A stretch of DNA of 56,118 nt, filler included, from Circinaria calcarea (taxonomy: Eukaryota): assembly GCA_051942165.1 (NCBI GenBank). It is 5 parts of 5 records of this genome, joined end to end, with 100 filler letters (N's around TTAATTAATTAA, not from the genome) between each part and the next. Parts side by side here need not be neighbours in the genome. Positions count along the whole stretch, not along the records: positions 44,992 to 56,118 come from JAVECS010000708.1; 4 more parts are not named here. One strand, written 5' to 3'. A program made the translations under genes and the position numbers. How positions within the stretch are numbered: position 1 is the first letter of the stretch; every line of letters starts with the position of its first letter. This document shows, in pieces, positions 11,158-56,118 of this stretch. The notes under the pieces are model-generated. The model searched no databases, was not told the DNA's origin, and saw only the letters and a program-made list of their open reading frames with translations.

Positions 11158-11257
11158 NNNNNNNNNNNNNNNNNNNNNNNNNNNNNNNNNNNNNNNNNNN
11201 NTTAATTAATTAANNNNNNNNNNNNNNNNNNNNNNNNNNNNNNNNNNNNNNNNNNNN
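11158..11257. other. Artificial contig linker (44 N + TTAATTAATTAA + 44 N)
   Basis: Exactly 100 nt with a six-frame stop cassette, identical to the other three linkers. Confidence 0.97.
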
Positions 11258-12247: not shown

Positions 12248-15200
12248 TTACGCTTCCTCATCGTCATCATCTCCCAACAATTCATCTTCATCCGGATCCA
12301 CGACCGCGTAGTCGTTCCTCCCTCTTGCAAAGCTCTGCCTGGTTGTGTACCTCCTCCCGCCCCCGAACATGCCGCTGACACTTCTCCAAATCGACCCCAC
12401 AAGCGTGGGTATAGCCACAAGGACAGCAACAATTCCTGAAACGACGACGATAGGATAGTGAATCCAGGGTTGGTCGGTATCGAAGGCTCCGCCGTTCTCC
12501 CCGAGTCGAATGCGGCCGAACTTACCATCCCAATTTCTCCACACCCAATATCCTACTCCTGTAGCTACGATGGCTGGCAAGAATACAGCCACTACAAAGA
12601 GACCGAATCCGCTAAGTCCTCCATGCTTCTTCTCGAATTCTTTTTCACGACCTGGGCAAGGATGTTCGGTGGAGACATATTCGAGCTCCCTACCTCCCTC
12701 GCATGTGGTTAGTGGGATTCGCCGGTAGCCGGTAGGTTCAAAATATGACTTTCGTTTTGGGTCATCTTTGCATGTCTGGGAATGGTCGGGGGGTTCGTAG
12801 CCTTCCACTAGCACGCAAGAATTGTCGGAGCCGAGCTGGTAGTTATAATCACTAAAATAGATGAATTAGTCCATGGTTGTTCGACATAAATGCAAGATTA
12901 ATACACACCATTCAAAGTCTTGTCTGGTACAGGAGCAGTTCCTGGCAATGGCGTGAAGCAGTTCTGAACTTCGTCCGTTGTAGCACTCTGACTCAAGTTT
13001 CTTTCGATGATACTGCGAAACGTGGCCGAAGAGACAGTTATCTTCTTGCAGGGGATGTTTGGGTTCCCAAAGATAATAGTCACCTCCGTTTGGGTTGGTT
13101 TCATCAAGCTTGCATTCTTTATCTGTCAATCCCGAGAAATCAATGTTCACGGTCAGGATCTCGTTTCTGTTAGAGGAATCCGTGCTCCAAAGCAAGAAGT
13201 TGCGGGAATTGTCTGACGGCAGGGTGGTAATGGCGTCGATCTTCATCTTCGAGTCCGAGAACTTGTACGATTTCCATGACTTGCCTTCATCAAGCGAGTA
13301 GAACACCTCATCCGTGGCAACATTCTCGGCCACAAGCACAATGACGGATCCTCGGTCACCAAATTCCCACATATGACTGCCCTTTTGTACTGCAGTCCAT
13401 GTTAAGCCACCGTCGCGAGTCATGAAGGTGTCAGCTTCAGCTTTCGGAGTCAGGAACGATCCAACGTTACCGACACCAATCATTAGACCAAGGGCTGAAG
13501 GAGAAGAGAAAGTGTTGCGATGATCTTTACGTTCGGTGTATCCGTGAAGATGCAACGAACACCCTTGGCCATCATCGGTGTCACAATCAAAGTCTTTGCC
13601 GTCAACATCTTTGGACGGCGCTGCTAATGGATCCCACTGCGCCCCATCGTTATGAGTGATCAATGTCCTTAGCTTCTTCGGACGACGCTTATCTCCATCT
13701 TCGAGGTTACCAACCACATTCACGACTGCGACACCTTCCAAGCCTAGCATCTTCTCGAAATCAACGTATCCTGCCGTATTCATGTTGACTCCGTTGATAC
13801 TCAGGACATAGGAAGTTCCATTGCTATTACTCTTCATGATGGTGCCGTATTCAAACCCCTCGTTCGTGCCAACCTTGACATTCACGAAAACGGCGTGCGT
13901 GGAGCTGTCTAGAACGGTATAGGCCTGTTGATGCGAAACGTTAAAGTTCTTGGGAAACCTGGCATCTGCGAAGGTAGTACCGTCAACGCTCGCATCAAGC
14001 TTGAGATCGTTCTTGCCGTCTTTGGCGGCGACAATTATAAATTCGGACATAGTGGCAAAGGCAGTAATATCTTCGAAGTGGGTTTTTGAATCCGCAAACC
14101 AATTATCACTTGAAAGCAGTTGCCATGGGCCATCGAGCTTCTCGTCTTTGTGCTGCTGGCAGTAAACCAATCTTTCCTTATCGCCTCGTCCCTCCTTCTT
14201 GATGAATTCACACCTGCGAACATAACGTAGCAATACTCTCCATTCGTTGCCTCTATCTTCGGTGATGTAGGCAACGGAATGACACTCCTTAGGGTCAGAT
14301 TTTTCACAACCTTGCGCGCCTGTCCAGATAAGCCAGTCCTTGTAATCCGGATGGAATACAAGGGCATCAACGGAATCCTCCACGGTTGGCACTGCTTCTG
14401 TAGTGAAAGATTTAATTGTATCACCTCTATTGATGGAGTAGAAGACTTCCTTGGTGGGAGTAAAGAAGTAAAAAACGTCGTGGAAGTACTGATGTGGAGC
14501 AATAGCGACTATTTCCTCGTTTTTCAAAATCTCTCGCCAAGTCTTGCCGTGATCTCTGGAGATATAAACCTCGTTTCGATCACTTCGATCAGTCAACATG
14601 ATGACTGTTTCGTCTTCGCCACTGCTAGTTGCCGTTCGTTCCAGGTAGTAGTAATCTTTGAAGCCCCTCCCTGGGAATTTAGTGGTCTCGTGACTGATTT
14701 TCCCGCTTACAGGTTTATGTACTGTTTCTCTGCAAGGACGCGAAACCTCCTTTTCTAAATTGATTCCTTTCTTGGTATCACACTGGTTTCCCGGTATCAA
14801 TCTGTAACCGGAAGGGCCCTTGAACTCATCATCGGCTTTTTTGCATTGATCTTCTGGAACTGGAAGTACTCCTGCTGGTACACACCTCTTTCCATCTTCG
14901 CCGCGGACAAAGTTGAAATCACATTCAAAGTCCTCCTCGGAGCAAGGACAGTACTCCCACTCAGGCTCTGGATCCTTGAACTCTTCGTCAATGAAGCACT
15001 CCGCATCTGCTTTCCGTCGTCTGTACTTTTGCTTACGGCCCATAAGGCAGTCTGGTTCTCCGGCTTTATCCAGGCGAGCCCACCAGTCCTTATAATCCTT
15101 CTCTCCGCATTGCCTCTCGTGAAGGCCTTTGAAGTCTATTGAGTAAATATAGTACTCGGTTTTAAAGCCTCTGCCTACGGTCCCAAGCAGTACAAACTGT

Positions 15201-22411: not shown

Positions 22412-22511
22412 NNNNNNNNNNNNNNNNNNNNNNNNNNNNNNNNNNNNNNNNNNNNTTAATTAATTAANNNNNNNNNNNNNNNNNNNNNNNNNNNNNNNNN
22501 NNNNNNNNNNN
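22412..22511. other. Artificial contig linker (44 N + TTAATTAATTAA + 44 N)
   Basis: Same 100-nt cassette as the other linkers. Confidence 0.97.
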
Positions 22512-25066: not shown

Positions 25067-26053
25067 TTACCTCTCCTCTCCGACGCATCTCGTTATCTCT
25101 ACGCCATCCTAGATACTGTTAGCAATTCATCTGTTACCCCAATGTCTTAACTTACCGGAATACCTGTTGGCTCAAAGCTATCGACGAGTTTGCTTTCGTA
25201 TATCAAGTTTGGATTTCCTTTGATTTCTGTACTGAGTTTTTCTTCTCCTTCGCGATTTCGATATTGGTTCTTCGTATGCTCTTTGAAGCTTGCATCGTCC
25301 GGCTGATTAGCGCCTCCGTTCTCAGAAAGTTCCCGTTTCTCTGCAACACTACTCCGAACGTATTTAAGATATGGAGGATTGCCCGGCTTGATGACGTTGT
25401 CAGCGGCCAAGACCGTCCCAGGCGAGACGAGTCCGAGATGTTCGCAGAGCTTTAGGTCTGTGGTATAGGCCGGCTTATAATGGTCGAGAAACATAAGATC
25501 TATGTGCTTCATTGTACCATTTTGATGTAGCCTTTTTATGGATTCTGCACTCGGCCCAATAACCACCTTTACCACGTCACTCAGACCTGCAAGGTCCACT
25601 AGACACATGATGACGGCGGCAAATTCGGGATTCCGCTCCAAACTGAAATACCTTTTGCCGCCTGCCTTTCGGACTGCATCACCAAAGAGGAGCGCCGAGT
25701 AGCCGACATATCCACCCAGCTCTACCATCGTCTCTGGCTTGACCTCTGCAATCAAGTCGGATACGATCTTGCCTTTGTCATCTCCAACATTCATGAGGTA
25801 TCTTTTCGTCCGGCCATACTCATCGACCGCCCGCAAGACTCCTGAAGGAGAGCCCCGAATCTCCTCAATCAAGGGATGGCCATACACGTAATGGAGGAGT
25901 TCGATCTCGCGCCCGTCGTCAAACTTTAGACACCTGATCAGCAGTGGGCAAGGAGGGATTGTGACCAATCTGACTAACGAACGCGGTACCTTCTTCCTCT
26001 TGAGGTACGTATGCCTTCGTCTCGTCGAATTGGTTGATGCGGGATTCCGCCAT
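25067..26053 (-). CDS. SAM-dependent catechol-type O-methyltransferase of the mycosporine cluster (MysB-equivalent)
   Basis: Exon 1 is MAESRINQFDETKAYVPQEEEGTAF, followed by intron 25924-25978 (GTTAGT..AAG). Core motifs LMNVG..KG, VELGGYVGYSA, FLDHYK..Y and LAADNV. Last exon DGVEITRCVGEER*. Divergent from the DDGS gene. Confidence 0.9.
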
Positions 26054-27808
26054 TGTTGACTCTGGCATCTGCATGGTCTCCGTTCACATGACCCGCCTTT
26101 GGAAGCACAATATTGTGTCTGTTTTCCTTGGGGCTGAGTGCAACCGAGAGGCCCAACTCTGATAGGATTCTCTGTCCGTCAAGCTGTCCCCTGGACCTGG
26201 GCCGAAGGTCAATTGATATTCGTCATTTCGGCCGCATCGAAACACGATCTAGGCCGGAAGGGAAGTCGCCATCGGAATGGCAGTCGCCAATGCTCTTCAT
26301 GTGGACCGGGCGCAAGCAGGGCAGGGCCATTGGTACGACAAGGCACATCTTCCTCGGCTCACTGGATTCTTCTCGTCACACCGTAAATTGAGACGGGATG
26401 ATTTTGGTGGTGGGGGTAATGCTCGATCAATGCAATGGGGCAGCCCCGCACTTAACCCCAAGAAGCTTAGAGGCTAGGGATGAAAATCTCTTTACTGTCG
26501 TCGACGTCAATGGACTTGCATCACGAACCAGAGGCCAAGCCTCTCTTCCGGTGGATGCATGGCCTATCACAGTCCATCAGCATCATCCCTCCGTCCACTC
26601 GCTGCCGTCGATTTCTCCGAGTGCGGAGGCTTGCGCGACGGCTCCCTGCCGCCTTTGCACTGACTACGGAGCCAGCCAGGGGACACCAGCCCCACCGCTC
26701 GAGACGTCCCACCCGATGCACACAACAAGCTCTACAGTCAACGTCCTCGAGCGCCACCAAGGCCTCCGGATGTTCCATGGCTATACAGGACTGCTGAGGA
26801 TGGTTTCATCTGGGTGGAGACCATCTATTACTTCCCGCCAGACGGCCTGCTTGATTCGCACTCCTAGTGGTGGATATCCACATGCATCCCAAAGCTCTGC
26901 CTACAGGAACAGCTCTAACCCTGCAGGAAGATGCTCTGCAAGCTTTCACTAGGTCAGATCGACCAGCTGTCAGAGCTTAACCTAATCTATCCGAGATCTG
27001 GACTGCCGACGATCTGGCCACTCACCCCCTGCGAAATTGCGAAATTGCCCTTGGGCTGGCCACTTGCTGAAAACTGGAAAGCGGGTGCTCTCAGTCGTGT
27101 GGGGTTGCACATGCATTCCATGCGTTTTGGCCATGGTATGACGATGCTCGTCAAGCGCGCTCTGTATAATGTCAAAGTTGAAAGGATATTTTCCGTCACT
27201 GGACGAGAAGCTGTCTTAACCAATTGCTTACCATGCAGCGTCCTATCTAATCATCCCGCGGGAGAAAATTTGTCCACGGAGGTATGGCCGGACTAGATTA
27301 ACCCAAATAGACGGAGGGATGGCGGAGGTGACCAGCGAAGGAGCAGGGATCTGCTGGTTAGTACAAAGTCATTGCACATCATCATGAAAATTTCCACAGC
27401 TCTGCATGCAAATCTGTATGCCTCTTTCGAATTGTGATTTGCTAAAGTCAAATTGGCGCGGAAGTATCAAAGCTTAGCAGATATCTGAGTTTCAGGCTTG
27501 TGAAAGTTCTCTACGGATTAGTGGAACTGCGGCTAAGCACATCGAGAAGCAAACCATTCTGAACCATGTCTGCATGGTCGGAATGATTGTAAGTCTAAGT
27601 GGTTGGCGTCAGTGCTCTGGTATAGCGCGATGCATTCAAGGTGCCGTGCATGGCAGCGAGTCATCGCGCCCCGTGGGTCCTATTAGGTGTACATATTTTA
27701 GCCCACGCTCTCTGCTCTCCATCTTTGTACAACACAAGCCTACAATCTCTTTCGTGACCCTCAGCAACTTCTTCCATCCCTCTTCAACCTTCTTTCTCCC
27801 ATTTCAAC

Positions 27809-29442
27809 ATGTCAGACCTCACGGCAACTGTGGAAGAGACCAAGCATGGCTTTCACGTGGAAGGATACGAGAAGATCTCATATGACTTTACATTTCTCGA
27901 CGGTGTCTTCAACCCCGAAAACCCCCAGCTGGCAGAATGCTACAGGCGATGGGGTCGAGTTTTGGCCGTAACGGACCAGAACGTGTATGATGTGTACGGA
28001 GACCAGATCGAAAAGTACTTCAAACACCATGCATTGGATCTCAAGGTGCACAAAACCAAGATTGGAGAGAAGGCCAAAACCATCCCGACCTTCTTGAGCA
28101 TCGTGGATTCAATGACCGAGTTCGGCATCTACCGAAAGGTACTTGCAATTGAGACCTTCCAGCATTGAAGAAACATCACTCACTCTGCATAGGAACCTGT
28201 GCTCGTTGTTGGCGGAGGACTTGTGACTGACGTTGCTGGGTAAAAGCTCGACCTTGCCAAAGATCACATCAAGGCACTCTCCCATCAATCTCCTAAGAGT
28301 TATCTCCATACTTGGATACAGGCTAACCGAGTTTGTGCTGCAGGTTCGCTTGTGCAGCGTATCGCCGAAACACCAACTTCATTCGAGTCCCGACCACCGT
28401 CATTGGTCTGATTGACGCCTCGGTTTCCATCAAAGTGGCGGTCAACTACGGTAACTACAAGAATCGTCTTGGAGCTTACCATGCTCCAATGCATACGTTT
28501 CTCGACTTCACTTTCCTCCGAACACTTCCCAAGGCTCAGATCCGAAACGGATTCGCCGAATTGATCAAGATTTCAACATGCTCGCATCTGGATACGTTCA
28601 ATTTGCTCGACAAGTATTGCGAGCAGCTTATCGAGACAGGCTTCGGCCGCACCGACGGAGCGCCCAAAGAAGTCCGCGAGGCGGCTGACAAGATCAACCG
28701 GGAAGGTATCCACGAGATGTTGAAGTTGGAGACACCTAACCTTCATGAGATTGGTCTTGACAGGGTGATTGCTTACGGTCACACGTCTGTGGTCTAATTC
28801 TCCACTTGTTTATATGCGCTGACATGATACAGGTGGTCGCCAATGCATGAACTTATGCCAGAGACACCGTTACGCCACGGCCACGCTATATCGATCGACA
28901 TGGCCTACTCTGCCACGCTGGCAAACGAGCGCAAATTGATCTCGGATGAGGAACATCGCAGGGTTCTGAACCTATTCTCCCGTGCAGGGCTATCGATGGA
29001 CCATCATATGTTCGATGAAGAAATCCTCGACAAAGGTACTGCGGCTATCCTCAAGACCAGAGACGGGAAGCTGCGGGCTGCCGTACCTAACCCCATTGGC
29101 TCGTGTACCTTTATCAACGACATCGACGCAAAAGAACTTAATGCGGCACTCCGACGACATAAGGAGTTGATGAAGGAATATCCCCGCAATGGCGAAGGGC
29201 TCGAAGCTTATGTCGATGCATCGGATACCGGTTACACCGAGAACAACAAGGCCGAGGTGGAAGCGCTCGAAGAGGCCGCAGCTGAGGCTGGGAGCCTCAA
29301 CGGCAACGGCTATATCCATGGCGGAAGCGTTTCTAATGGGCATGTCAATGGTACCAATGGTATCAAGGAGAAGCTTACCAATGGATTCCAGAAGGATCTT
29401 ACGAATGGAGTCAATGGTTTCACCAACGGTGCCAGGGCATGA
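27809..29442 (+). CDS. Demethyl-4-deoxygadusol synthase (DDGS; sedoheptulose-7-phosphate cyclase, MysA-equivalent)
   Basis: DHQS-fold motifs [35 protein letters not shown] and [12 protein letters not shown]-type signatures [22 protein letters not shown] (spliced) and LRHGHAI. Four exons. Confidence 0.93.
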
Positions 29443-33654: not shown

Positions 33655-33754
33655 NNNNNNNNNNNNNNNNNNNNNNNNNNNNNNNNNNNNNNNNNNNNTT
33701 AATTAATTAANNNNNNNNNNNNNNNNNNNNNNNNNNNNNNNNNNNNNNNNNNNN
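33655..33754. other. Artificial contig linker (44 N + TTAATTAATTAA + 44 N)
   Basis: Same 100-nt cassette as the other linkers. Confidence 0.97.

Positions 33755-33801
<47 letters not shown>
33755..33801. repeat. Poly-G tract (47 nt) at the contig start
   Basis: Read directly. It abuts the linker, so it is probably the cause of the assembly break or a sequencing artefact. Confidence 0.85.
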
Positions 33802-44891: not shown

Positions 44892-44991
44892 NNNNNNNNN
44901 NNNNNNNNNNNNNNNNNNNNNNNNNNNNNNNNNNNTTAATTAATTAANNNNNNNNNNNNNNNNNNNNNNNNNNNNNNNNNNNNNNNNNNNN
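44892..44991. other. Artificial contig linker (44 N + TTAATTAATTAA + 44 N)
   Basis: Same 100-nt cassette as the other linkers. Confidence 0.97.
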
Positions 44992-45418
44992 GAGTATGGC
45001 GGAAGTTGGGATGATTGGGTAGCGGAGGGAGGTGAGAAGGGAAGGGAAGGTGAGAAGTAAGGGGTGAAGGGGTAAGCGAAGAGGGAGAGATGAAAATTAA
45101 GCAGTGGGAGGATAGCACGGACCTATGGAGAGGACATGCTCTAATTTGGAAAAGAATAAGCATATGAGACCTTCATGGGGTAGATGATGGACGACGATTC
45201 ATGAACATAGGGGGGAGGCTGCCAGATAAAATAACGAGAAATTTCAATAATTAACTATACTACATGTGGAGGTATTCGCTAAGGCTAAACTGCGGGCTGC
45301 TTGTTTCTGTTAAAATGCTTAAGGTCACGTTCTGCTAAGGTATTGATTGTAATTGCAGAATGAGCTGAAGCTATCGGATTACTATGGGCTTATGGCCCTA
45401 TCTATGATAGTCATAACC

Positions 45419-47786
45419 CTATGGCTTGCCCACTTCATGCGGAGCAGCAAACGAATGAACATCAACAGTCCGAGGCCTAGTCGACATTTCTATCCCAGCT
45501 TCCTTTTGGTCGTTTTTCAGATATTCAATACCGTTTATGACACTCTGTAATTGCACGTACTCCTCGTCTAGCTTAACGTACCAGAAATACTGCCCCTCTT
45601 CATTCCCTCGTGTAGCTCGAGTTGCATATCCGTTCGAGATAAAACGACGGAGTTTAAGTCCTCCCCAGAGCAAAGGCACGAGAATTGGAACCGCATAGAA
45701 AGCAACGACTTCTTTGACTGAAAGATTACCTTTCCACCACAAGGTGGTTGAGAAGACAAATATGATCAAGAAACATCCTACAAGGCCAGCGCTGGTTACC
45801 CATGGCTGAAACTTGAAAAGCAGAGTGGAAGCCCCGGTCTTTTTGGGGTCCCAACGATTATATCTGGCATATCTACCCACAAGCTTTTCCCTGTGAAATC
45901 GAAGCCTAGGTCTCGAGTTAGCCCATAAAATAACATAGCAGAGCGACAGAGTACCATATATAGTATCGCACGTATGCTAAGCATTGAGTTCCCCAGACAA
46001 AGATGCAACTGATACTCGATGTGACGTTCATGATTTCGATCAACTGTACCATACGAGATTAGCATATATGAGTACTAGGATCGAGCAGCGCCTTTAGCGA
46101 TAATTTAAAAGATTCATGACATCGGTTGTGCATAACTCATGATTCACGCTGATCTCAACGAGAATGTGGAGACGTCAGAACTTACACCCTTGGTGATTTG
46201 CCCCGGCACAAGCTGAGAAAAAGGGATCCAACAAAAGAAAACTCCTGATATGACGACACAGACGATAGGAACTCCTGAGTCCGACAGTTTACTCATCCAC
46301 GAGAATGGCGCTCTTTTGTACGGTGTTCCACGGGAAAGCCCGTACAGTGTCCTTGAAGCAACATACAATGCTATGTTTGACGCGCTGAACCCAGAACAGA
46401 TCACGATAATCGCAAATGCGGATTTCATACCTTGATAGCCTACTTTGGTGGCTACCAGAATAAGTATAGCAGAAGTGGTGGTATTGCTGTTAGGGAGTGT
46501 CTGGCCAATATCATCGGAGATTCTATGTAGATTGTCATCTGTCGAAGACACGGAGGCCACTTCGGCCCACGCGTAAGCAAAGTACATGATGAGCACCACG
46601 TATGCTACCGTCTTCGAGGGTCGTTGTAGATCCTTGAGATCTCGAGCCTCAAACGCAGTAACGCCAACAACTTCAACTCCAAGGTAGCTATACGCAACAA
46701 ACGCCACGACTAGGCTTTACCATGGTCAGCATAAGACTACATTGCTGAAGAGATATGCTCACCAAAGACTCGCAGCCCAGTTGTTTGTCTGAGACGAATC
46801 GCTCTGATATCCAGCTGCAATATCTAAGGTAGATTTTAAACCATCATATCGCAAAGGTATTGTGGTGGGGACAAGTACCTCTTGACGCATGAGTGTCTAA
46901 CATTGAAAGTTAGCTAACACGAATACTGATCGGGTAACACTACTAACTTTTCCCTGCAAGAAAAAACATTATCAAAGTCAGAGCCACAAGAGTAACGAGC
47001 TTGGCCGCTCCGCCGACTGATTCGATCCACCCATACACCTTTCAGAGATGAGCAGCTGAAACTGGGAAAGTCCAGAGCTCACCTACATTGACAGGAAATA
47101 GATTGATGACGATTACTAGAAGCGGCCAGAGTATATAGAATACGCCAATCTGGAGACTCTGATGTTCTTGACTCATACTACCTTGGCGCATAAGGAATTC
47201 GTTAAGGAAATTGGCGCCAGTAGCTGCTGCGATCTGATACGAGGAGGCGTATGTGTACCTGCAATATTGAAAGACGTTAGTCTACTGTTGAGAAGAGAAA
47301 TTTTAGGGGCTTACCAATACAGTACGCCCATCACAATCGCCAGGTCTTGATCCACGAAATTCTTCACGTATTCGACTAGTGCATTAGGTGCGGCGAACAT
47401 TTGTATCATCTCACTGAGACCTTCCATCATGGCTATTGCTATGAGACCGACAATCGTTAAAGCTGTCAAAAGGCCTCCAGGACCAGCAGCTCGAAGAGCT
47501 TGTCCATCCCCGACGTAGATACCGGTCCCGATTAGAGCACTGATGACGATCAACTAGTGACATGTCAACTACTGAGCTTAGAGCAAGTAGGCTCACGAAC
47601 AAAGATCTGCAAGCCGCTCAAGGTTTGTCTGCCAGACATCATTGTCAGCTCTTGCCAGCAACGAGTAACGGAAAGATAGGTACCGACATACCTCAGCCCA
47701 GCCTCCTTTCTATCAGTTGCCTCGATCCCTGTCTCGACAACGCAGTCCCCATGGGAGTTTTCTGGTCCTACCAATGTCTCTGACAT
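45419..47786 (-). CDS. Divergent APC-superfamily amino-acid permease (multi-exon)
   Basis: TM1 motif ISALIGTGIY..G..L..AGPGG, then MEGLSEM, WIESVGG..K, AYSYLGVEVVGVTAFEA, SASNIALYVASRTLYGL and GVP. Many introns. Confidence 0.85.
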
Positions 47787-48401
47787 AACGATAGCTGTTT
47801 TGTGCTTGGTGGCAATAAGTTTTCAGTGAAGCAGAGAGAAGAAAGAAGCATGATCCAGCAAGGAAGAAATATTTGAACTGAGAGATTGAAAGTGTAAGTC
47901 ATCGCACGGTTAGAGCCTCATGAATCTTGCAGCGTAATTATTGCTACCAAATTCGTGGGGGGATTAGCATGTGTTGCATGCGTCATGTACATAAGAATGG
48001 TGTTTTATTCGACGTACAATTCGTCCACAACCAAGCTGATTCGTTGGTGTTAGCCGATAAATGATTCCTTCTACTGCGGTCAGCACTACGCTAAAGCCAG
48101 TAATTTTTTTGGGTTAACTAACTGATCTTACTGGTAGGTAACGAGGCTCTAGTTGTATTAGGCATGGTAGGATCCACTTATCTACCTTGTATCGGACCAT
48201 TGAACTCGTAATCCCCCGTTTTGCCATGTGCCGTGCGATAATGCGACTATGCTCGGAGGTACCATAGCTGTAACTAGTCGCGGCTTAATCAAGATCTCTG
48301 TGCGTGCGTCCAAAGCAAGAACGCTCACCCCCCATTATATACTTACTTGCACTTGTGACACGAGTCGATATCTTACGCAACCGAGGTCCTATTCTGGGAC
48401 A

Positions 48402-51254
48402 ATGGTGGGGAACACAAGTACTTTGAACGTAGACATCAGCTCCGAATCAAATCGTCCACCAATCGACAATTTGCAGCCAACTCCCACCATTTTAGACAAA
48501 GATCACATCGACAGCCTATATAAAAGTATTAACAGCAAGCTGCACAGGGCGAATGATTCTGATCCCACAAAATTCCTCTGCGACGAAGACCTGACCCAGG
48601 TATGGTCTAACATTAGTGACCTTGAGCGACTGTTTCCTTCATGGGATGCTTATGATCTCTCTTGCATACAAAAAGATTATGTTAAGATATTATCTATTCT
48701 TATACTCATTCAGTGGCCATTCTCGTCTGAGGCGTTTAAAGGGGATTTCTACTTACTTGACCGCGTGGACGCCAAGCTGCCATTTGAACAGAGTTCTCTT
48801 CGATCATTGGGAAATCCATATGCAAAACAGTTTGACCGGAAGCAATATACTTTAGTACCGTTGTTTATAGAGGACAAATTCGATGCGCAGATAGAGGACT
48901 GGCCTAAACGTCGACCTTGGCCCTTCGAAGAAGAGCCAAACCAGATCGGAGCAGGTGCGTACGGTAAAGTTTTCCGTGCGTATGTCGCGAGTCATCACCT
49001 AAGAACTATCAATGAGAGCAATGACATCAGTTCGAACGACAAAGTAAGTATGGCCACTGAGGTAGTCAAGTCCCTTTAGAATATTTATTAAAATGTGATC
49101 AGAAAACAGCCGTCGTATACAAGCAGGTCTCCGACCCAACATCGTACGAGATTGAGGTTGGTAATTTAAGTTACTTGAAAAAAAGCCTTCGAGGACACCA
49201 AGCTATCTCGCTACATTTAGCGGCAGGAATCCAAGGATCAAACTTCTATATATTCCTCCGTTACGCCGAGCTTGGTGATCTTGAAACCTTATTGCGGAGT
49301 GGCCAGGGATTAGAACCGAGTACACAATCATATGATTTTGATGAGAAGTTCCCAGATTATCATCCTAAGCACCTTTTCGATCAACTTGCCGGATTAGCAG
49401 GAGCTTTGGACTTTCTACACGATAACCTTGAGGTGCCGACGCGTCCAGGCACATATTGTAGCCATATGGATCTGAAGCCCAACAATGTATTAGTATTTCC
49501 TCAGCCTGGTCAGCCCGTCGGCGCATGGAAACTGAGCGACTTTGGGATATCAGCTTTCAGCAGCGGACGGCTTGGAACCCGAACGATTGGAGATATAGCG
49601 AGCTCGGGAGTCTCTCGCCAAGACAGACAAGGGGCTCATCGAGCGCCCGAGTTGGATGCCTGGTATTTACAATCGTTCTCTGGACGAGCAAGTGATGTAT
49701 GGTCGTTTGGCTGTATCTTCTGTGAAGTCTTGGCATTTGCCATTGGGAGAACTAATGGTCTGCAAGACTTCAGGGTGGGTCGGCGGCACGATAGAAAGGA
49801 CTGTTTCTATACGAGGGAGAAACTATCAGGCTCAAGCAAAGGTGGAGTCGACGATAATGTTTTAACAACCGAGGATTACAGATATATCACACTGCCTTAC
49901 GTCAAGAAATGGCTCGATGATATCGCACCAACGCGATTGGACCAGGATTTCGGTGCAGAAACGTATGCCTCAATTATTAAAGAAATACTCGTCACCCGTC
50001 CAGATTCACGACCCAAAGCCAAAGCAATTCTAACCCAGTTGAACAAGGCGAGGAAGAATATATCTAACCCAAATGCTAAAGATTCTCCCGGTGCTACTAG
50101 GAGGTGGAAATTGGAGTTACCTAAAGACAAAGTCATCGATTGGACCCTGTCTCCATCTGGAGACTCCGCAGCCTTTCTTTTTCGAGGGCGATCGACTAGT
50201 CATGTTGCTATATTTGAGCTTCAAGAAAAATCACCGGCTGTTAGGCCATATCTAAGATCGCATCTAGATAGAAACTTGCAGAAAATAAGTATTGCCGGAT
50301 CTTACTTCGCAGTCCATGGTCCTGATTCAAATGGAGCGAAGGAGGTATTGAAATAATTACTATCTTTAAACATAGATTTCTCGAACATACAACTAACATC
50401 TGATAGATATACCTCGGGAACTCTCAAACTGGGAAATATATTGAAGAACCATCTAATGCCAGTTCCGACCTACGCGGCATTTACCCGTCAAGAAGAGGAG
50501 TCTTCGCCTTCGAGTACAACGAAAAAGTGACGGTCTGGAACTCAACGTTAGGGGCTGTATCCACACACATCGAGAGATACTGATTCTTTTTTTAGTGATA
50601 TGCTACCCCAATCGAAAATATTTTCTACCCAACAGCCCTACTCTGTTCACAAAATAGCGTTCAACTCTACCGGCACCTACCTTTTTGTATGGGCAAGAGC
50701 CGGTAATCGTTCGGATCTCGTTTCAATCTTTACAGTTTACGATGATTCGGAGAAGCCGAGAATAACGTGTACACTGCCTACGGTGAGATAGTAACCTATA
50801 ATATTCGGTCCAAAGTTACAATCTGATGAATGATAAGGAACATATATTAGGAGAGTCCCTTCTTTTGCCGTGTATAACTGAGTCGCATTGTGTTGTACAA
50901 ATGTCCAACCGACGTCTCTTCGTTCCACAGGTTATAGAGAACACGACGGAATGGACGGTGAAAAACAATTATAAGTTTGAAGCGGATCCTCTGACGTATG
51001 CTGCCAATGATCATGCTTTGATATACCTTCATAAGTCTGGCAATTTGTTAAAATCAAGATGTCAGATCTGGGAGCAACGATTCTATATCAGTGTTGATGG
51101 AACATGGGCTCTTAAAGCGCGTGCCAAACAGCATCAAGAGACTATGATGAAAGGTGCTATTCTCGCAGTCGGGGAAGCTTCTGACGAACAAATTGTGACT
51201 TTATGTAATATTAAGGGAGAGGTGGAAAAGTTTAGAATACCATTCAATGCATAG
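48402..51254 (+). CDS. Non-RD Ser/Thr protein kinase with an N-terminal helical region and a C-terminal beta-rich (propeller-like) region
   Basis: Gly loop GAGAYGKV, intron 49044-49102, then VVYK, HMDLKPNNVL, KLSDFG, APE and DVWSFGC. Downstream exons have WD-like strands (WTLSPSGDSAAF, IAFNSTGTYLFVW). Stop at 51254. The start codon is uncertain. Confidence 0.85.
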
Positions 51255-51679
51255 AATCTCAGCATTCTGCTATTCCCCAGACCCGCATAAAGTGGTATAT
51301 TTGTACTTGTGCATCCTGATCATAGTATCTGGTCGAGGCGAACGCCTATGTCTACTCCCTTATCTGAGGGAGAGGTCGTCGGGGGGAGGTCGCCCAGTTT
51401 CCAAATTGTAGTTTACTCGGTGGCGCCAAAAAGAAAAAAAATCATGGACTTAAACTCCTAGTTGTTGACACTAATAACTTTCCCTGTTGAACATATGCTT
51501 ATCTCCTAAGTTTTGTGTAACGGTCGCAACGAGCAGCGTGCAGCCTAATGCCAGATTATCCCGCAATGAGTTGGATCGCGTATAATCGGGTCGCACGCTA
51601 TGCATAATCCCTTCATACTCAAGACTCAGTCTACCTCTTTCGCTTCTCTGCCGTCGCAATCTCACAGACTTGTGGAATC

Positions 51680-52081
51680 ATGCCTTCGCTCAAGAAAACC
51701 GTGATCCGACCAGACGAATCAAATTACTTCCTCAGCGACCACATACTTGAAGCCTTCTTGAAAAGACGGTTTCCGAGGCAGAAAGATTTTAATATCGAGG
51801 TAGTGCCTGCCGTCTTCGTTGCTCATTAACGGCGCCTTAGACACTAACTGAGCCTGTTCAGAATTACAACTATCGCTGGACTTTTGATGCCCCCGAGGTC
51901 GTTGATAATGTAAGTGCCTCAACTGGGTTCGTCACTTGCTGACATGGATTAATCGACTATGTAGTCTGAGATCAGGTGGGCCTGTAAACTATGCGTCTAC
52001 ATCTTGTTGCTTACATACGAGAATAGGAAATGGATCGAGGAGATTCAAGCCGAAGAGCTTCGAAAGAAGCAGCAAAAATGA
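51680..52081 (+). CDS. 77-aa four-exon microprotein, absent from the ORF track
   Basis: Exons 51680-51799, 51862-51909, 51965-51975 and 52027-52081. All introns are GT..AG with branch-like CTAAC/CTGAC/CTTAC. The product is MPSLKKTVIRPDESNYFLSDHILEAFLKRRFPRQKDFNIENYNYRWTFDAPEVVDNSEIRKWIEEIQAEELRKKQQK*. Confidence 0.72.
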
Positions 52082-52315
52082 TATTTGCAGCGCGCAAATA
52101 GAATACGCATTGGATAAGGCAGAATAGAAGGTTAAGGCTTTCCTCAGGCCATGATCCGGGGCGGCATAAGGCTGGATGATTGCGCCTTGACTCCTGATTT
52201 GAGGGCGGCGCAGGCAGCGGGGTTGATTATCAAGTAGTATAGTCTAATCAAGTCCTGCTCTGACTTTGTTCTCCTTGATATGATTGATGTGCTGCTGTGG
52301 AAACTACATACGAGT

Positions 52316-54034
52316 ATGACTATCGCCGAGGACCACTCGATGATGCCGAGCTTCCCGCCGGATTCTCTCTTTGTTAGCGGCACTAAGCAGCTTCGTGATA
52401 GAGTCGCAGAGCTATCCTCATCTCTATTTTCAGATACCATCGACGTTCGAATCATCGATATCGGCAAGGACGGCCCCCATGGTAAGTCTGCACTCACCAA
52501 CATTAATTCCACCACTGACCCTTTCCCTGAGCTCTAGCTACATGCAGTAACAGAATATATTCGACCGATGGGGAAGTAGAAACAGCAATCTCTAGCTCTA
52601 TTCACCCTCCACTTAGGATCATGTGAGTCTATGTGTTGTGCCAGCGCAGGGGATACGCCTGACTGTAAGGTATCAGCTCCCTACACTCCCTTGCAGTGGT
52701 ACTGCCATTGCGAATCACCAGCAGTTTGATGTGGAAAATTGTGGACCGCTATACGATCAGCGCGGACTTTCTTCATGTCTTGTGTTCGTTTGGGGGAGCT
52801 CCTCTGCCGACCGAAAGTGGAAGCAGTAATCTAGTCGCTGCAAAAGCCGCAGATAGTTCCTCGGGTACGTCTTGTACCAAAGTGGGCTCTTCGACTGATC
52901 ATCTGCACAGGGACTTGCTGTTACCGACTCCAGTATGTGGAGAACAATCTCAGAGGTGGCTTCAATCCATGGTCACTGCGGCATACTGGGCTCTTCCACC
53001 ATTATACGGACCAATTCAATCTTTGGATACTTCTCCATCCAATGAAGGATAGCATATTCGAGACGCAGCTTGCGGATTTCCTTCAGCAAAACTGTGGTCC
53101 CAATCTCATGGCTGAAAGGTTGCTACGTTCCCCTTCCTGTTTACATGTCATGTTGTGTTCAGCCTACCTTGATAATTGGAGATGGTGGCTGAGAGATTTG
53201 GGAGAACTGGTGTCTCTCAACGTACGTGTAGACGATTCAAGGCGATGATATGCAGAGAACGAAGGCTTATGACCTATAGAATGAAATAGCCTTCACTTCA
53301 GATATGTCTTCACCAGTGAAAGTGGATCGGGGCGTTCTCGAGTTCAATGAAGTTCGGAAACTCAGGCATGCCTACGACAGAATTGTCTCCGCCCACGCAC
53401 TTTGCAGGAGCAATGTAATAGTGCTTGCAGGCATTGAGAAGATTTCAGAGTCATTTATTCTGTCGAATAATGATGGAGAGGCGGAAGAACTCTTTGGAAA
53501 GTACTTTACCTCGGCAGCAGAAAGGTTGAGAGGATATCTACAGGGATTCGAAGTCTTGGAGCGAAAAGCCCTGAATGCTATAAACCTAGTAGGTCCGCCC
53601 GTAGAAACTTGGGCGCGATACTAAAGGCGGGCTTTAGTCGTCATATGCGCTGAATTGGCGGTACCAAAACACAGGAGCAGATATCAACAATCACCTTCTC
53701 GAGCTGACACAGCATGGGGCTGATGACAGCGCAACCGTCAAAACAATCACGGTTGTATCGCTGTTCTATCTACCAGGCAGCTTCATTGCCGTGAGTACTG
53801 CAGTATTGTAGACATAAGCTTTGCTAAATTCTCCTCTAGACTCTGTATGGGGCAAATTTCTTCCTTTTCGACCCGGATCTCCAGAGCCTCATCATTAGCC
53901 ATAATTTTTGGATATTTCTTGTCTCTTGGATTCTAATTACCACGATCACCATCGCCATATACGCTAGTCTTCGTTGGTACAAAGGACGTCCAAAGCGACC
54001 AAACATGGCCATTGATCTGGAGATAAACGGGTAA
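52316..54034 (+). CDS. Divergent CorA-like protein with two C-terminal TM helices and GAN in place of GMN
   Basis: Spliced motifs PLRIT..., FLHVLCSFG, LQYVENN..GFNPWSLRHTGLFHHY, WILLHP and LHVML...YLDNWRWWL. A long coiled region is followed by DSATVKTITVVSLFYLPGSFIA-TLYGANFF and a second TM helix FWIFLVSWILITTITIAIY. Stop at 54032-54034. Confidence 0.8.
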
Positions 54035-55373
54035 GAAAACAACAGAGAGGCAAAATCAAACGTCTACAGCAGTTCTGTTTAGATTTCGTTTAGGTTTGGT
54101 AGAAGAAGGCTGTTGTTATGACAAAGGATGGAGCAAGGGGGCAGTTGGCTATTTAGCCAACTAGCAGACCGTAGATTGACAAACGAATCTACGTATTTTC
54201 CATCAGATGCATGCTCTCCCCTGACAGCTGTGCTCTCTTGAAATCGTGTCTAGAGGATTAGGGTCGGCGTAGGTGGTTAGTGCTGGTGATAAAATGCCTA
54301 TGGTCACGTTGTGCCTAAGCATTTGGAAGGGAATTTGAATGGGTTGAAGCTATCGGATCACTATAGGTTTATAGTAGTATTTATGATAATCATGACCTTG
54401 TAGCTTGCCCACTTTGAAGCGGGGCAGTAAACCTGTAAATAGAGGGTTTAATGATCCTCCGGGAGTATTCTCTATGGAATGCGCGGGTGTGCAGAACTTG
54501 TGCACGCATAACCACACCTTCCATCACATTCCAACAACTGGGTTCAAATCCGCCAGGCTGTTGAATCCATACGTGAAGAAGGTAAGTCAGATGAGATCGA
54601 GGTCGCTGTCTAAGATTCAATAATATACAGACAAAGTCACTTAAAATTCTGCGTACTCATTTCACTTATTAGGGTTAGAATAGTCAGGTGATGCCCAGAG
54701 ATCGAAGCGAGTCGCCTGATAGCATTACTAGCTAAGTATTTGCTTTCACCAATGGGATCAAGCAGAGAGATGAGCATAATACCCTTGAGTCCCTGCTTCT
54801 GTGGGGATAGGCATGGGGCAACTGGTAAGTAAGGGAACCGCAAATACAAGCGTAGGCTAGGGTTCAAGTGCTTCGAAGGTGGTTCCATAGTACGTATGAG
54901 GACAATGGATGTTGAGCCATGATTGTCTGCTCTTTGTAGCGTCGTATTCTGCACTCGAGCTCCATCTTTAGAGGACAAGAAGCCCACAGGAAGGTAGATC
55001 TGGTAGAACTAGAATTTTTTTAGCATCAGCTGGCCTCACCAAATGCCAAAAAATCACAAATAAGTACGCCTTGGTGTTGGTCCAGTTTATAACCGATGCA
55101 AGCATTCTCTTATCCTCTCTCGGACTGGATTCTCTACCCATCTTTCTCCCATTATGGCACAGCCCAGCATTCCCATTCCGCTTTTCCGAGACGTTAAAGC
55201 TTCTAAACCGTTGGCCGACGCAGCTATGCCTTCACATTGCCCAACTCCACCTTGAACGAATTGCAACAACAAGCTTCAGTTAGATTACAAGTTCGCTGTG
55301 GGTTATGATACTTTGAAGAGTTTGTACAAGTACTTCATTTGTGAACAATTATCGATACACTAAGCCATCCACA

Positions 55374-56118
55374 TTAAATGCTAAAGGTATAGCCCTCTTC
55401 GTCGCGAGAACGAGAGTAGTAGCCATTCATCTCCAGCTGCAATATCAGCTGATCAATGTTCTTACGCCCATCTACACTCATATTCGCATGATCAAAAGGA
55501 TTGCTCATGCCATCAGGTGTCCTCTTATTCACGCCATGATCTCTTCTGTAGCTCATTCCTTTGCACGCGCGTATGAAGGTCCTAATGTTGACGTCGAGCT
55601 TCTGGTATAGCTCCCTCACTCTAAGATTTTTATTTGTGGTAACGTGCTGATTCCCGTTCTTAGAGACTGACTCTTTCGCATACAAAAGAATTAGACGGAA
55701 AATGTCCTCTAAAAGATGCATCACCTTCTCTTGCCGTTTTCGTAGTAATAAAGAAAACAGCATGCGGTCCAGGACCTGCTCATGGTATTCTTGGAGATGG
55801 TGCAGTCCATCACGTTCTCCAAGACCACTTCCAGCATGGTCAACATCAACTCGCTTTTCGAGGCTGTCAAGATCCCTCTCGAAGTAATCCCATGTTGAAC
55901 GAATGCCACATTCAAAGAAATACCCACAGATGGTTGTCACGAACCAATGAGCCACGGTACAAAAACGCTGAGAGGCCAGATCTATCGATGACAGATCACG
56001 CCCTCTGGTCCAGCCGTCACGAGACATCTGGTTGACAACGAACATCATACGTGTCAGTTTGAGGAGTAGTCTGAATATTGTATCATATTTCGCCAGGCAG
56101 GATAAAGTAAATATCGTA
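55374..56118 (-). CDS. C-terminal part of a gamma-tubulin complex component (Spc97/Spc98 family, probably GCP6-like); 5' end outside the window
   Basis: GRIP2-like C-terminus: AHWFVTTICGYFF...TWDYF, L..YHEQVLDRMLFSLLLRKRQ..V..LLEDIF..IL and QLILQLEMNGYY. Confidence 0.75.
   Translation of the reverse strand, partial: TIFTLSCLAKYDTIFRLLLKLTRMMFVVNQMSRDGWTRGRDLSSIDLASQRFCTVAHWFVTTICGYFFECGIRSTWDYFERDLDSLEKRVDVDHAGSGLGERDGLHHLQEYHEQVLDRMLFSLLLRKRQEKVMHLLEDIFRLILLYAKESVSKNGNQHVTTNKNLRVRELYQKLDVNIRTFIRACKGMSYRRDHGVNKRTPDGMSNPFDHANMSVDGRKNIDQLILQLEMNGYYSRSRDEEGYTFSI

Follow-up and report, generated by a model that had tools for sequence, protein, structure and literature searches.

Kinases, CorA proteins and permeases in known systems

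Yeast kinases are known to govern permeases and cation transporters, with Npr1 acting on Gap1 and Mep2, and Hal4 and Hal5 acting on Trk1 and on amino-acid permeases. CorA-family proteins serve as effectors in bacterial type III CRISPR systems, and non-RD kinases are enriched in innate immunity. In the lichen fungus Endocarpon pusillum a CorA family, which may or may not be the subfamily described below, is expanded beside HET, ankyrin, P-loop and kinase families (PMC3897900). No description of the four-gene unit that is the subject of this work was found in the literature searched.

The unit was encountered in a window of 56,118 nucleotides from Circinaria calcarea, which is the whole stretch of DNA that was analysed and consists of five mutually unrelated pieces of about 11.1 kb each, joined by N spacers. 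All four intact genes are located on the last of these pieces (44992-56118), where an amino-acid permease on the minus strand is followed on the plus strand by a kinase, a microprotein and a CorA-like gene (45419-54034). All four have open reading frames and canonical introns. A sequence-only reading of the window had placed the four genes in these positions, which is borne out by Pfam matches, homology-guided splice models and tblastn, and its spacings of about 600, 430 and 235 bp agree with the gene models, which give a permease-kinase gap of about 600-750 bp, 425 bp from the kinase stop codon to the microprotein ATG and 198 bp from the microprotein stop codon to the CorA-like ATG. The intergenic region between the divergent permease and kinase extends from 47651 to 48398 according to the sequence and gene models. 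This junction is spanned by a contig from the X1 run, which derives from a related organism and in which a 379-base stretch is represented by 71 letters.

The CorA-like protein

The CorA-like membrane protein consists of 480 amino acids and is encoded on the plus strand at 52280-54034 by seven exons (52280-52481, 52538-52622, 52677-52864, 52911-53221, 53280-53588, 53638-53790 and 53840-54034). The gene model is intact, homology-guided and uses GT-AG introns throughout, and it is backed by tblastn with 15 family representatives. The cytosolic N-domain carries a family signature, WSxRHTG[VIL][YF]H (52970-52999, plus strand), in which the Ser and Arg are invariant and the Thr, Gly and His nearly so (alignment A1). 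At the sequence level, the Pfam CorA family (PF01544) gives weak matches to 11 of 15 full-length relatives, four of which reach at least the 27-bit cut-off, and no match at E <= 0.01 to the exon pieces of the window gene. The homologue P0105, which matches all five 3' exons of the window gene with 30-59% identity, was modelled with a pLDDT of 84.4, and the model can be aligned by Foldseek with Thermotoga maritima CorA over its full length (about 400-430 columns, E 1e-10, probability 1.00). It comprises an N-terminal alpha/beta cytosolic domain, a long stalk helix and two C-terminal transmembrane helices. The modelled homologue thus supports a full-length CorA fold for the family, and a channel of this fold would probably form a pentamer.

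The GMN selectivity motif is replaced by GAN at 53849-53857 (plus strand), inside the sequence YGANFF, where the first transmembrane helix ends. The presence of GAN had been recognised from the sequence alone, but it is uncommon in this family, whose members mostly carry GMN, which is found in 18 of the 20 aligned loci, the other two having GAN (L004) and GME (L009). Among 15 database representatives, eight have GMN and two have GSN. The retention of GMN by most relatives speaks for a conducting channel in the CorA-like family, whereas its change to GAN suggests that the channel of the window copy probably does not support classical Mg2+ conduction.

The non-RD kinase

The kinase is a multi-domain protein of about 865 amino acids encoded on the plus strand at 48399-51254, with a Pkinase match of 52.4 bits against a cut-off of 31.7. 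The downstream exons up to 51254 are part of the same gene, and open splice models with GT-AG introns place the exons at 48399-49043, 49103 to about 50311, about 50407-50546, about 50596-50782 and about 50838-51254, the three 3' junctions being uncertain. Sequence and family alignment place the tripeptide HMD of a non-RD catalytic loop at the position of HRD (49463-49471, plus strand), and the DFG motif is retained (49538-49546, plus strand). The catalytic Asp is kept, as are the Lys and Asn of DLKPxN, and both HMDLKPNN and the Gly-rich loop can be read in the open reading frame. An alignment of 16 sequences including that of the window (A2) has K, E, H-x-D, K, P, N, D-F-G and P-E as invariant positions. 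The sequence-only reading was correct in describing HMD and a non-RD kinase, but this feature is shared by the entire family, since all 21 family members aligned in the loci are non-RD (HMD, HLD, HND, HHD or HQD).

The N-terminal domain of the kinase is common to the proteins P0001-P0009 and the loci, is helical, and matched no Pfam family. A model of P0003 consists of this helical domain, the kinase domain and an all-beta C-terminal domain (residues 714-1043, pLDDT about 70-85), and in Foldseek searches it retrieved the kinase-WD40 half of LRRK2, seven-bladed WD40 propellers (WDR91, Aip1 and UTP18) and TKL/TK kinases. The family of the last exon in the window aligns with P0003 residues 850-1040 with 99.2% probability, while the Pfam WD40 family gave no match in the window pieces or in the family sequences searched. 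The model supports an architecture in which a helical N-domain precedes a TKL/TK-like kinase domain, a linker and a predicted C-terminal WD40-like propeller. The best sequence-profile matches are to FGFR kinases (E about 1e-13), and the family appears to be restricted to Ascomycota. Kinase domains related to that of the module are also present on the NACHT-ankyrin NLR-type proteins P0012 and P0014, according to precomputed Pfam domains.

The permease and the microprotein

The permease is a diverged member of the APC/AA_permease group of amino-acid permeases, encoded by several exons on the minus strand from 45419 to about 47650, where the 5' end is approximate. Two open reading frame pieces in the window match Pfam AA_permease with 46 and 44 bits (cut-off 24.6), as does the orthologue in locus L030 with 61 bits, and tblastn segments obtained with the module permeases of other loci and with P0042 tile 47565-45650 and so cover the gene. 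The only solved relative recovered, with the L030 orthologue as query, is LysP (9EYD, E 7.6e-5).

The microprotein is encoded on the plus strand by three exons (51680-51799, 51862-51909 and 52022-52081) which, in the splice models, yield 75-76 amino acids; the acceptor of exon 3 was picked by likeness to relatives, and the alternative acceptor at 51965 would yield 92-95 amino acids. Weak collinear tblastn matches occur in 10 loci, a profile of exon 1 recovers loci outside its training set (E 2e-8 to 2e-11), and an exon 2 motif, RW[TS][FY]xAP, is found in 12 loci and in the window at the expected place only. Between the related loci L023 and L037 the microprotein has a dN/dS of 0.03, which indicates strong purifying selection in this pair. 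In the lineage of the window dN/dS reaches 0.52, with 11 changes in 56 residues compared with an approximately 90% identical relative, one of them at the conserved Arg of the RW motif, with divergence in the exons equal to or greater than that in the introns.

Linkage of the four genes across fungal loci

The CorA-like signature was the sole criterion for retrieving 60 metagenomic fungal loci, so that their selection was blind to the neighbouring genes, and these loci collapsed into 38 non-redundant groups at 90% identity. The context of every locus derives from metagenome contigs, and some groups may represent paralogues, not separate species. At least one partner is present in 24 of the 38 groups (kinase 19, microprotein 16, permease 11), and the 14 groups that have none are all short-flanked, with no more than 1.9 kb upstream and 2.1 kb downstream. 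Where at least 3 kb is available on both sides (ten groups), the same kinase family is found beside the CorA-like gene in all ten, the microprotein in nine and the permease in eight. All four genes, of the same subfamilies as in the window, occur together within about 10 kb on eight non-redundant contigs (L014, L018, L020, L022, L023, L025, L026 and L036).

Gene order and orientation vary between lineages and the linkage is retained. The common arrangement has the permease on the minus strand, followed by the microprotein and CorA-like gene on the plus strand and then the kinase on the minus strand, while L032 has the CorA-like gene followed by the kinase, both on the plus strand, and the JAABU group has the kinase and microprotein on the minus strand followed by the CorA-like gene on the plus strand. 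The linkage is not absolute. L031 contains permease, microprotein and CorA-like gene and L032 the CorA-like gene and kinase, and their CorA-like genes are 95.8% identical although the flanks differ; L006 has the microprotein and CorA-like gene and no kinase in the 2.4 kb downstream; and in the JAABU group no permease lies within 10 kb. The same adjacency is indicated by merged gene models in two named Sordariomycetes, namely Monosporascus, where P0036 is a merged or fused model of the N-terminal part of the CorA-like protein and the kinase (hhalign 98.2%), and Paramyrothecium, where P0042 is a merged model of kinase and AA_permease.

Each of the four genes belongs to a large, lineage-expanded family, and they could in principle be unrelated neighbours whose adjacency is residual synteny without meaning. 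This reading is disfavoured and very improbable, because the linkage is found in every locus with enough flank despite rearrangement and an identity of only 25-56% between the module proteins of different loci, because the gene trees are congruent (see below), and because adjacency recurs in the merged Sordariomycete models. The genes that flank the four are mostly metabolic or housekeeping genes that differ from locus to locus, which argues against general synteny. In all loci whose flanks are long enough, homologues lie no more than a few kb apart, which bears out the proposal of a co-inherited module, and the data support the view that the four genes do not lie together merely by chance.

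Linkage could also reflect shared regulation only, through, for example, a bidirectional promoter or a chromatin domain that responds to nitrogen or ions, so that uptake of nitrogen compounds and of cations would be co-regulated and the kinase would not act on the membrane proteins. This would fit the common arrangement, in which the permease diverges from the microprotein/CorA-like pair across a spacer of 535-850 bp, and the neighbours related to amino-acid or nitrogen metabolism in several loci, namely L014 (GCV_T and Aa_trans), L020 (Aa_trans, a 2OG oxygenase and a glutamine-synthetase-like gene), L036 (a PLP decarboxylase) and L040 (an amidase). It would also fit the HGATAR sites in the spacers, of which there are 36 where 25 are expected, but this excess is weak, and the six sites in the permease-kinase spacer of the window, compared with 2.9 in shuffles, are at best a hint. 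Moreover, no single promoter layout is conserved, because orientation and order change between lineages, the flanking genes vary by locus, and regulation alone leaves unexplained why a soluble kinase should co-diverge with two membrane proteins. Shared regulation as the sole basis of the linkage is considered rather unlikely.

Congruent trees and the divergence of the window copy

The congruence of gene trees, which the sequence-only reading had named as a check on co-inheritance, was found for the CorA-like protein, the kinase and the permease. The clade of L018, L025, L026 and L036 is starred in all three trees, and in the CorA-like (98/98) and permease (89/87) trees the window falls together with L020, L022, L023 and L030. 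The terminal branches of the window in the three trees are long (1.26, 2.21 and 1.42 compared with medians of 0.54, 0.68 and 0.43). In comparison with the X1 relative, the coding exons contain indels of 15 and 9 bases, both of which are multiples of three and keep the frame, and the kinase has diverged by 9.3%, close to the 8-10% of intergenic sequence. The window copy is a rearranged, fast-evolving variant in which the kinase has moved to a position between the permease and the microprotein. The fast microprotein and the long branches are more in keeping with a conflict system or with relaxed constraint than with housekeeping transport.

Under relaxed constraint, the unit would be functional in the family and the window copy would be a decaying or neofunctionalised relic. 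The three long branches, the rearrangement, the rarity of GAN (one of 20 other loci) and the altered microprotein, with its 11 changes including the RW Arg and its exons diverged at least as far as its introns, are all consistent with such a fate. The copy nevertheless retains four open frames with canonical introns, its coding-exon indels relative to X1 preserve the frame, and the catalytic residues of its kinase are intact. Decay or a change of function of this copy is considered quite improbable.

Possible function of the module

It is proposed, with roughly even confidence, that the four genes form an anciently linked Pezizomycotina unit in which the kinase controls both the channel and the permease and the microprotein is an accessory of the channel. 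The kinase would be an active, cytosolic, non-RD TKL/TK-like enzyme whose WD40-like propeller may act as its sensing or docking part, and it may phosphorylate, and thereby control, the CorA-like channel and the permease. The microprotein, which is predicted to be soluble and about 75 amino acids in length, may bind the channel as an accessory subunit. The outcome would be that ion flux and the uptake of an amino-acid-like compound are switched jointly by a single putative cue. What the data show are the linkage, the co-divergence, the folds, the intact catalytic residues and the purifying selection that acts on the microprotein in one lineage; the action of the kinase on the channel or permease, the binding of the microprotein to the channel, and the cue and physiological role are inferred. 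In many moulds and lichen fungi that are only distantly related the four genes recur together, which identifies them as a working unit not described before.

A more speculative and, on balance, unlikely possibility is that the module is a non-self-response, allorecognition or cell-death system. The kinase, by means of its WD40-like part, would detect a biotic or non-self cue either directly or via the permease, and would open a pentameric CorA-like channel that the microprotein, as an inhibitor or adaptor, holds shut, resulting in an alarm flux or cell death. The cue might be an amino-acid-like compound that enters through the dedicated permease. A new conflict system of this kind, Pezizomycotina-wide and vertically co-inherited, would be consistent with the fast evolution of the families (25-56% identity between loci), with the long branches of the window in three trees, and with its frame-keeping indels, a kinase that diverges about as fast as intergenic DNA and a microprotein dN/dS of 0.52. 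The related kinase domains on NLR-type P0012 and P0014, an NB-ARC/DUF7779 gene in L040 that lies about 2 kb away from the module, and the CorA expansion in E. pusillum (PMC3897900), if it concerns the same subfamily, point in the same direction. However, in most loci neither the module nor its immediate surroundings contain a HET, HeLo, gasdermin or amyloid motif, and the four window genes carry none of the NACHT/NB-ARC, HET, HeLo, gasdermin or amyloid-motif domains. The flanking genes are mostly metabolic or housekeeping and specific to each locus, GMN is retained by most members, it is not obvious what the permease would do in such a system, and in one lineage strong purifying selection acts on the microprotein. 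If a conflict system it were, the module would be a eukaryotic counterpart of the bacterial immune CorA effectors, and the rearranged, GAN-bearing window copy would represent a lineage under diversifying selection.

Comparison with known systems

The P0105 model has the same overall fold as members of the CorA/Mrs2/Alr1/ZntB superfamily, as seen in T. maritima CorA (4I0U, 3JCF, 2IUB and 8TMC), and most module relatives likewise have YGMNFF where the first transmembrane helix ends. Sequence identity is nonetheless only 11-14%, the module family has a cytosolic signature of its own (WSxRHTGVYH ... DNWRWY), and the window protein has GAN instead of GMN. Unlike the CorA-like gene of the module, Alr1, Mnr2 and Mrs2 are not known to be linked to a kinase and a microprotein.

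The kinase resembles the C-terminal half of LRRK2 (8TZE) in having a kinase domain that is followed by a predicted WD40-like propeller, and its kinase domain is similar to those of the TKL/TK kinases BRI1, BAK1, CTR1, ALK2 and FGFR. It differs from these in that it lacks ROC-COR, LRR and transmembrane parts, has its own helical N-domain and belongs to a family that is entirely non-RD. The permease is akin to the AA_permease proteins of the YAT/AAT type (LysP 9EYD, yeast Gap1 and Can1, and the sensor Ssy1) by Pfam membership and by a first transmembrane signature close to the consensus, but it is very diverged and forms a subfamily of its own which co-diverges with the kinase and the CorA-like gene. 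An analogy for the proposed unit as a whole is offered by Npr1 and Hal4/Hal5, with which it would share the idea of a dedicated kinase that sets a cation transporter and permeases together. Those kinases, however, are not homologous to that of the module, their genes are not clustered, and they operate without a microprotein or a CorA-type channel.

Linkage of the four genes

The genes for an amino-acid permease (AA_permease), a non-RD kinase, a microprotein of about 75 residues and a CorA-like membrane protein remain linked in fungal loci other than the window. A HMMER search with one CorA-like exon recovers 328 cluster representatives at E <= 0.001, of which 80 reach E <= 1e-10, and the signature WSxR[HQ]TG[VI][YF]H, derived from an alignment of CorA-like relatives (A1), retrieves 60 confirmed loci on JGI metagenome contigs (L-handles), which make up 38 groups when clustered by their CorA-like domain at 90% identity. 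The choice of loci was blind to the neighbours of the CorA-like gene. Wherever the contig is long enough, tblastn finds a permease of the same subfamily (searched with pieces of the window) about 2-3 kb upstream on the opposite strand and a kinase with the same N-terminal domain about 1-3 kb downstream in convergent orientation. Among the 38 groups the kinase adjoins the CorA-like gene in 19, the microprotein in 16, the permease in 11 and any partner in 24; the 14 partnerless groups all have flanks of at most 1.9 kb upstream and at most 2.1 kb downstream. In the ten groups that have 3 kb or more on either side, the kinase is present in 10/10, the microprotein in 9/10 and the permease in 8/10, and all four genes are found together on eight non-redundant contigs (L014, L018, L020, L022, L023, L025, L026 and L036). 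The genes outside the four vary between lineages and include GCV_T, Aa_trans, glutamine-synthetase-like, PLP decarboxylase, Vta1, Bax inhibitor, MFS transporter and transposase genes; since these are not conserved, the linkage does not reflect general synteny.

The linkage also persists across differing gene orders and orientations. The majority of loci read permease(-) microprotein(+) CorA-like(+) kinase(-), the window reads permease(-) kinase(+) microprotein(+) CorA-like(+), two loci (L032 and L033) read CorA-like(+) kinase(+), and 13 syntenic JAABU contigs, in which no permease lies within 10 kb, read kinase(-) microprotein(-) CorA-like(+). In the JAABU lineage an NLR-like NB-ARC/DUF7779 gene and extra kinase genes lie beside the module, the flanking genes being located at 12470-13783 and 3511-4140 of L040 and at 14141-14818 of L045, all on the minus strand. 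L006 carries the microprotein and the CorA-like gene with no kinase in the 2.4 kb downstream. L031 (4286-6915) and L032 (9049-11668) share a 2.6-kb CorA-like gene that is 95.8% identical between wholly different flanks: L031 has the permease and the microprotein with no kinase within 4 kb, and L032 has the kinase with neither permease nor microprotein within 9 kb. Such a contrast might stem from recent fragmentation or duplication of the module, or from a chimeric assembly.

Some neighbours are of an amino-acid or nitrogen-metabolism type (GCV_T, Aa_trans, 2OG oxygenase, glutamine-synthetase-like, PLP decarboxylase), as at L014 9368-12328, L020 804-4897 and L036 11273-12841, an anecdotal observation.

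Gene trees and taxonomic distribution

The maximum-likelihood trees of the CorA-like protein, the kinase and the permease agree with one another. The loci L018, L025, L026 and L036 form a group in all three (97/94, 100/99 and 100/99), and the window groups in the CorA-like tree with L020, L022, L023, L030 and L006 (98/98), in the permease tree with L020, L022, L023, L030 and L037 (89/87). The copy in the window has long terminal branches in all three trees and, because of its long branch, is not placed in the kinase tree. The agreement implies that the four genes are inherited as one unit, whether they descended together or were duplicated together. The sequence-only reading had proposed a co-inherited module, and the linkage in well-flanked loci together with the congruent trees upholds this for all four genes.

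Family members occur in Dothideomycetes, Eurotiomycetes, Sordariomycetes and Lecanoromycetes. Among the database homologues (P-handles), P0042 from Paramyrothecium foliicola is a merged model of a kinase and an AA_permease, P0036 from Monosporascus merges the CorA-like signature domain with a kinase (hhalign 98.2%, E 6e-14, residues 18-260), and P0043 is a CorA-like and kinase merger too, judging by its listed domains. As predicted gene models, these mergers show the adjacency of the module in named isolates. The ten named CorA-like representatives have no species in common with the list of kinase relatives. A search of proteins of 794-2265 aa with A1 found no long fused CorA-like forms, which is weak evidence, and a word-indexed protein search with the CorA-like exon gave no match.

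Gene structure and genomic context

The window is composed of five pieces, each about 11.1 kb long, with N44 + TTAATTAATTAA + N44 as spacers at 11158-11257, 22412-22511, 33655-33754 and 44892-44991. The pieces are unrelated, so genes on different pieces are not neighbours, and because the module is confined to the last piece (44992-56118) its true genomic context is only about 11 kb. All four genes claimed by the sequence-only reading are present and intact there, and the gene spacings, the HMD of the kinase and the GAN of the CorA-like protein are as it had given them.

The permease gene (45419 to about 47650, minus strand) has two ORF pieces that match Pfam AA_permease with 46 and 44 bits, and homologous segments tile the entire gene. 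The kinase gene (48399-51254, plus strand) encodes a Gly-rich loop, a VAIK-type lysine that sits past a 59-base intron, HMDLKPNN, DFG and APE. This gene continues past the stop codon at 50356, and three more ORFs, reaching to 51254, belong to it as exons: a profile of the last exon meets this domain again in other loci, where it closes the kinase genes at their 3' end. In total the kinase comprises about 865 aa, with 117 open GT-AG splice combinations and uncertain 3' junctions. The microprotein gene has three exons (51680-51799, 51862-51909 and 52022-52081, plus strand) encoding 75-76 aa. It was considered as the first exons of the CorA-like gene, which was rejected given that in every locus inspected it ends in a stop codon of its own. 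The CorA-like gene starts at 52280 on the plus strand and has seven exons with canonical introns encoding 480 aa; in full-length relatives, of about 430-510 aa, the signature domain lies at about residues 140-250, which fits this start.

Downstream of the module, the minus strand at 55374-56117 encodes the C-terminal portion of a gamma-tubulin complex component (GCP_C_terminal, E 7e-34); this is a housekeeping gene, truncated by the end of the window and outside the module. The other pieces carry ordinary fungal genes. An O-methyltransferase gene (25150-26178, minus strand) and a 3-dehydroquinate-synthase-like gene (28327-29439, plus strand) are separated by 2 kb, and unannotated ORFs occur between and beyond the two. 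We take this pair to recall the DDGS/EEVS and O-methyltransferase core of mycosporine (UV-sunscreen) clusters, which would presumably suit a biocrust or lichen fungus. Piece 4 opens at 33755 with a run of at least 16 G, probably a contig-end or sequencing artefact.

The microprotein

In a relaxed search, exons 1 and 2 of the microprotein show weak collinear matches in ten loci, on the strand of the CorA-like gene and between this gene and the permease, with the same three-exon structure and intron positions. A profile built from the first matches finds loci on which it was not trained (L011 at 2e-11, L030 at 8e-8 and L022 at 2e-6), and the next round adds L036 at 2e-8 and L026 and L027 at 1e-7. 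Exon 1 of L023 and L037 differs at 13 bases and only two residues, and the resulting dN/dS of 0.03 identifies a real protein-coding gene. The microprotein, the N-terminal domain of the kinase and the last kinase exon have no Pfam match even at E <= 1. In the ESM Atlas, microprotein exon 1 and the kinase N-terminal domain match only unnamed clusters, mostly from Ascomycota, which serve as leads only; by Pfam and the ESM Atlas the microprotein thus appears to have no known family.

The exon-2 motif RW[TS][FY]xAP, searched in six frames over 489 kb, occurs only at the expected site in 12 loci and the window (51874-51894), the exception being a related motif in the N-terminal region of the kinase in five loci. 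This relative, QWEF[SC][AV]P, lies just ahead of the kinase domain (L042, L045, L046, L053 and L055) and resembles the microprotein motif, and the window kinase carries a related stretch near 48900. The segment ahead of the kinase domain might be the origin of the microprotein, or be mimicked by it.

The CorA-like protein, the kinase and the permease

The representatives of the CorA-like family bear the UniProt name 'CorA-like transporter domain-containing protein', and 11 of 15 full-length relatives match Pfam CorA weakly, four of these above the cut-off. For P0105, a Lentithecium protein of 453 aa, AlphaFold predicts a beta-rich N-terminal domain, long helices and two terminal helices (pLDDT 84.4), and the model aligns to T. 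maritima CorA over about 400-430 columns (E 1e-10). In the window, YGANFF closes the first of the two C-terminal hydrophobic helices. YGMNFF is kept in 18 of 20 aligned loci and in 8 of 15 database representatives, so the GAN of the window is an exception which among the aligned loci is common only to L004. The retention of GMN in most members argues for divalent-cation conduction by the family.

The kinase family is entirely non-RD (HMD, HLD, HND, HHD or HQD), all catalytic residues are invariant, and the kinase is probably active. Its nearest relatives by profile are FGFR-type kinases (E about 1e-13); a single-sequence search against solved structures gave no match at 1e-5. In the model of the homologue P0003 (mean pLDDT 68.5) a confident helical N-terminal domain (40-170) precedes the kinase domain, and a disordered linker (567-713) leads on to an all-beta C-terminal domain, to the last blades of which the last-exon family aligns with 99.2% probability. 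In Foldseek this model is matched best by the kinase-WD40 half of LRRK2, by WD40 propellers with seven blades and by TKL/TK kinases such as BRI1, BAK1, CTR1 and ALK2. The permease is classed by its sequence as a highly diverged AA_permease member, and LysP is the only solved relative found (E 7.6e-5).

Divergence from a close relative

Short contigs from a biocrust metagenome run (X1) represent a relative that is about 90-96% identical across the whole 9 kb. One spans the permease-kinase spacer, which indicates that this unusual junction is not an assembly artefact, and another links the microprotein to the beginning of the CorA-like gene. The permease piece has diverged by 4.1%, the CorA-like piece by 6.5%, the kinase by 9.3% and the spacers by 8-10%, and the coding-exon indels, of 15 and 9 bases, are both in frame. 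Among the differences listed, and on one low-depth contig, 11 of 56 residues are changed in exons 1-2 of the microprotein (dN/dS 0.52), and its exons are as diverged as its introns or more. At 47876-48256 in the permease-kinase spacer, 379 bases are replaced by 71 other letters in the relative. The putative promoter region shared by permease and kinase is structurally variable between close relatives. The window copy appears to evolve fast with its frames kept, which fits relaxed constraint or diversifying selection.

Rapid evolution is also among the points that would favour a cell-death or non-self system, as raised by the sequence-only reading. Kinase domains related to that of the module are borne by NLR-type proteins, the NB-ARC gene adjoins the module in one lineage, and a study on Endocarpon pusillum reports co-expansion of a CorA family with HET, ankyrin and P-loop families (PMC3897900). 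A system of this kind is the less likely reading: against it, no death domain is present and the permease would be left without an obvious role.

Proposed function

The most likely reading, to which we give about an even chance, is that of a kinase-controlled membrane unit. It builds on what the linkage, the co-divergence, the folds and the catalytic integrity establish, and we infer the remainder of the working. The kinase, with its WD40 and N-terminal domains, would dock on or sense something and phosphorylate the CorA-type channel, the permease or both, and the microprotein, whose gene always adjoins the CorA-like gene, may be an accessory subunit of the channel. The invariant Ser and nearly invariant Thr of the WSxRHTG signature are, speculatively, candidate phospho-sites. 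The spacers between permease and microprotein contain 36 HGATAR (GATA) sites where 25 are expected, a weak excess, which together with the nitrogen-metabolism neighbours leans towards a nutrient or ion role without being convincing.

The full-text literature searched, which takes in few subscription journals and no supplements and does not prove absence from print, gave no description of the cluster, of the microprotein or of a link between the kinase family and CorA-like genes. An expansion of CorA-like genes in a lichen fungus is read by its authors as magnesium supply to the alga (PMC3897900), and another report describes three CorA-like transporter genes as down-regulated in Pestalotiopsis co-cultured with a bacterium (PMC9040847). 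Three of the four module genes are without a described function, and a microprotein of 75 residues would escape annotation pipelines. The module offers a testable handle on a large unexplained family known only by its annotation as CorA-like, and may represent a new means by which moulds, lichens and plant pathogens govern membrane transport or cell fate. In our view it is a conserved gene unit of a kind new to fungi.

Genes whose linkage outlasts deep divergence and rearrangement and which diverge together, as these four do, carry the genomic mark of proteins with a joint function. Conserved non-metabolic gene clusters are rare in fungi, and mating loci, het gene pairs and gasdermin-protease pairs each pointed to new biology. 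The module likewise gives a handle on an orphan fungal kinase family which, as modelled, would share the kinase-WD40 build of LRRK2.
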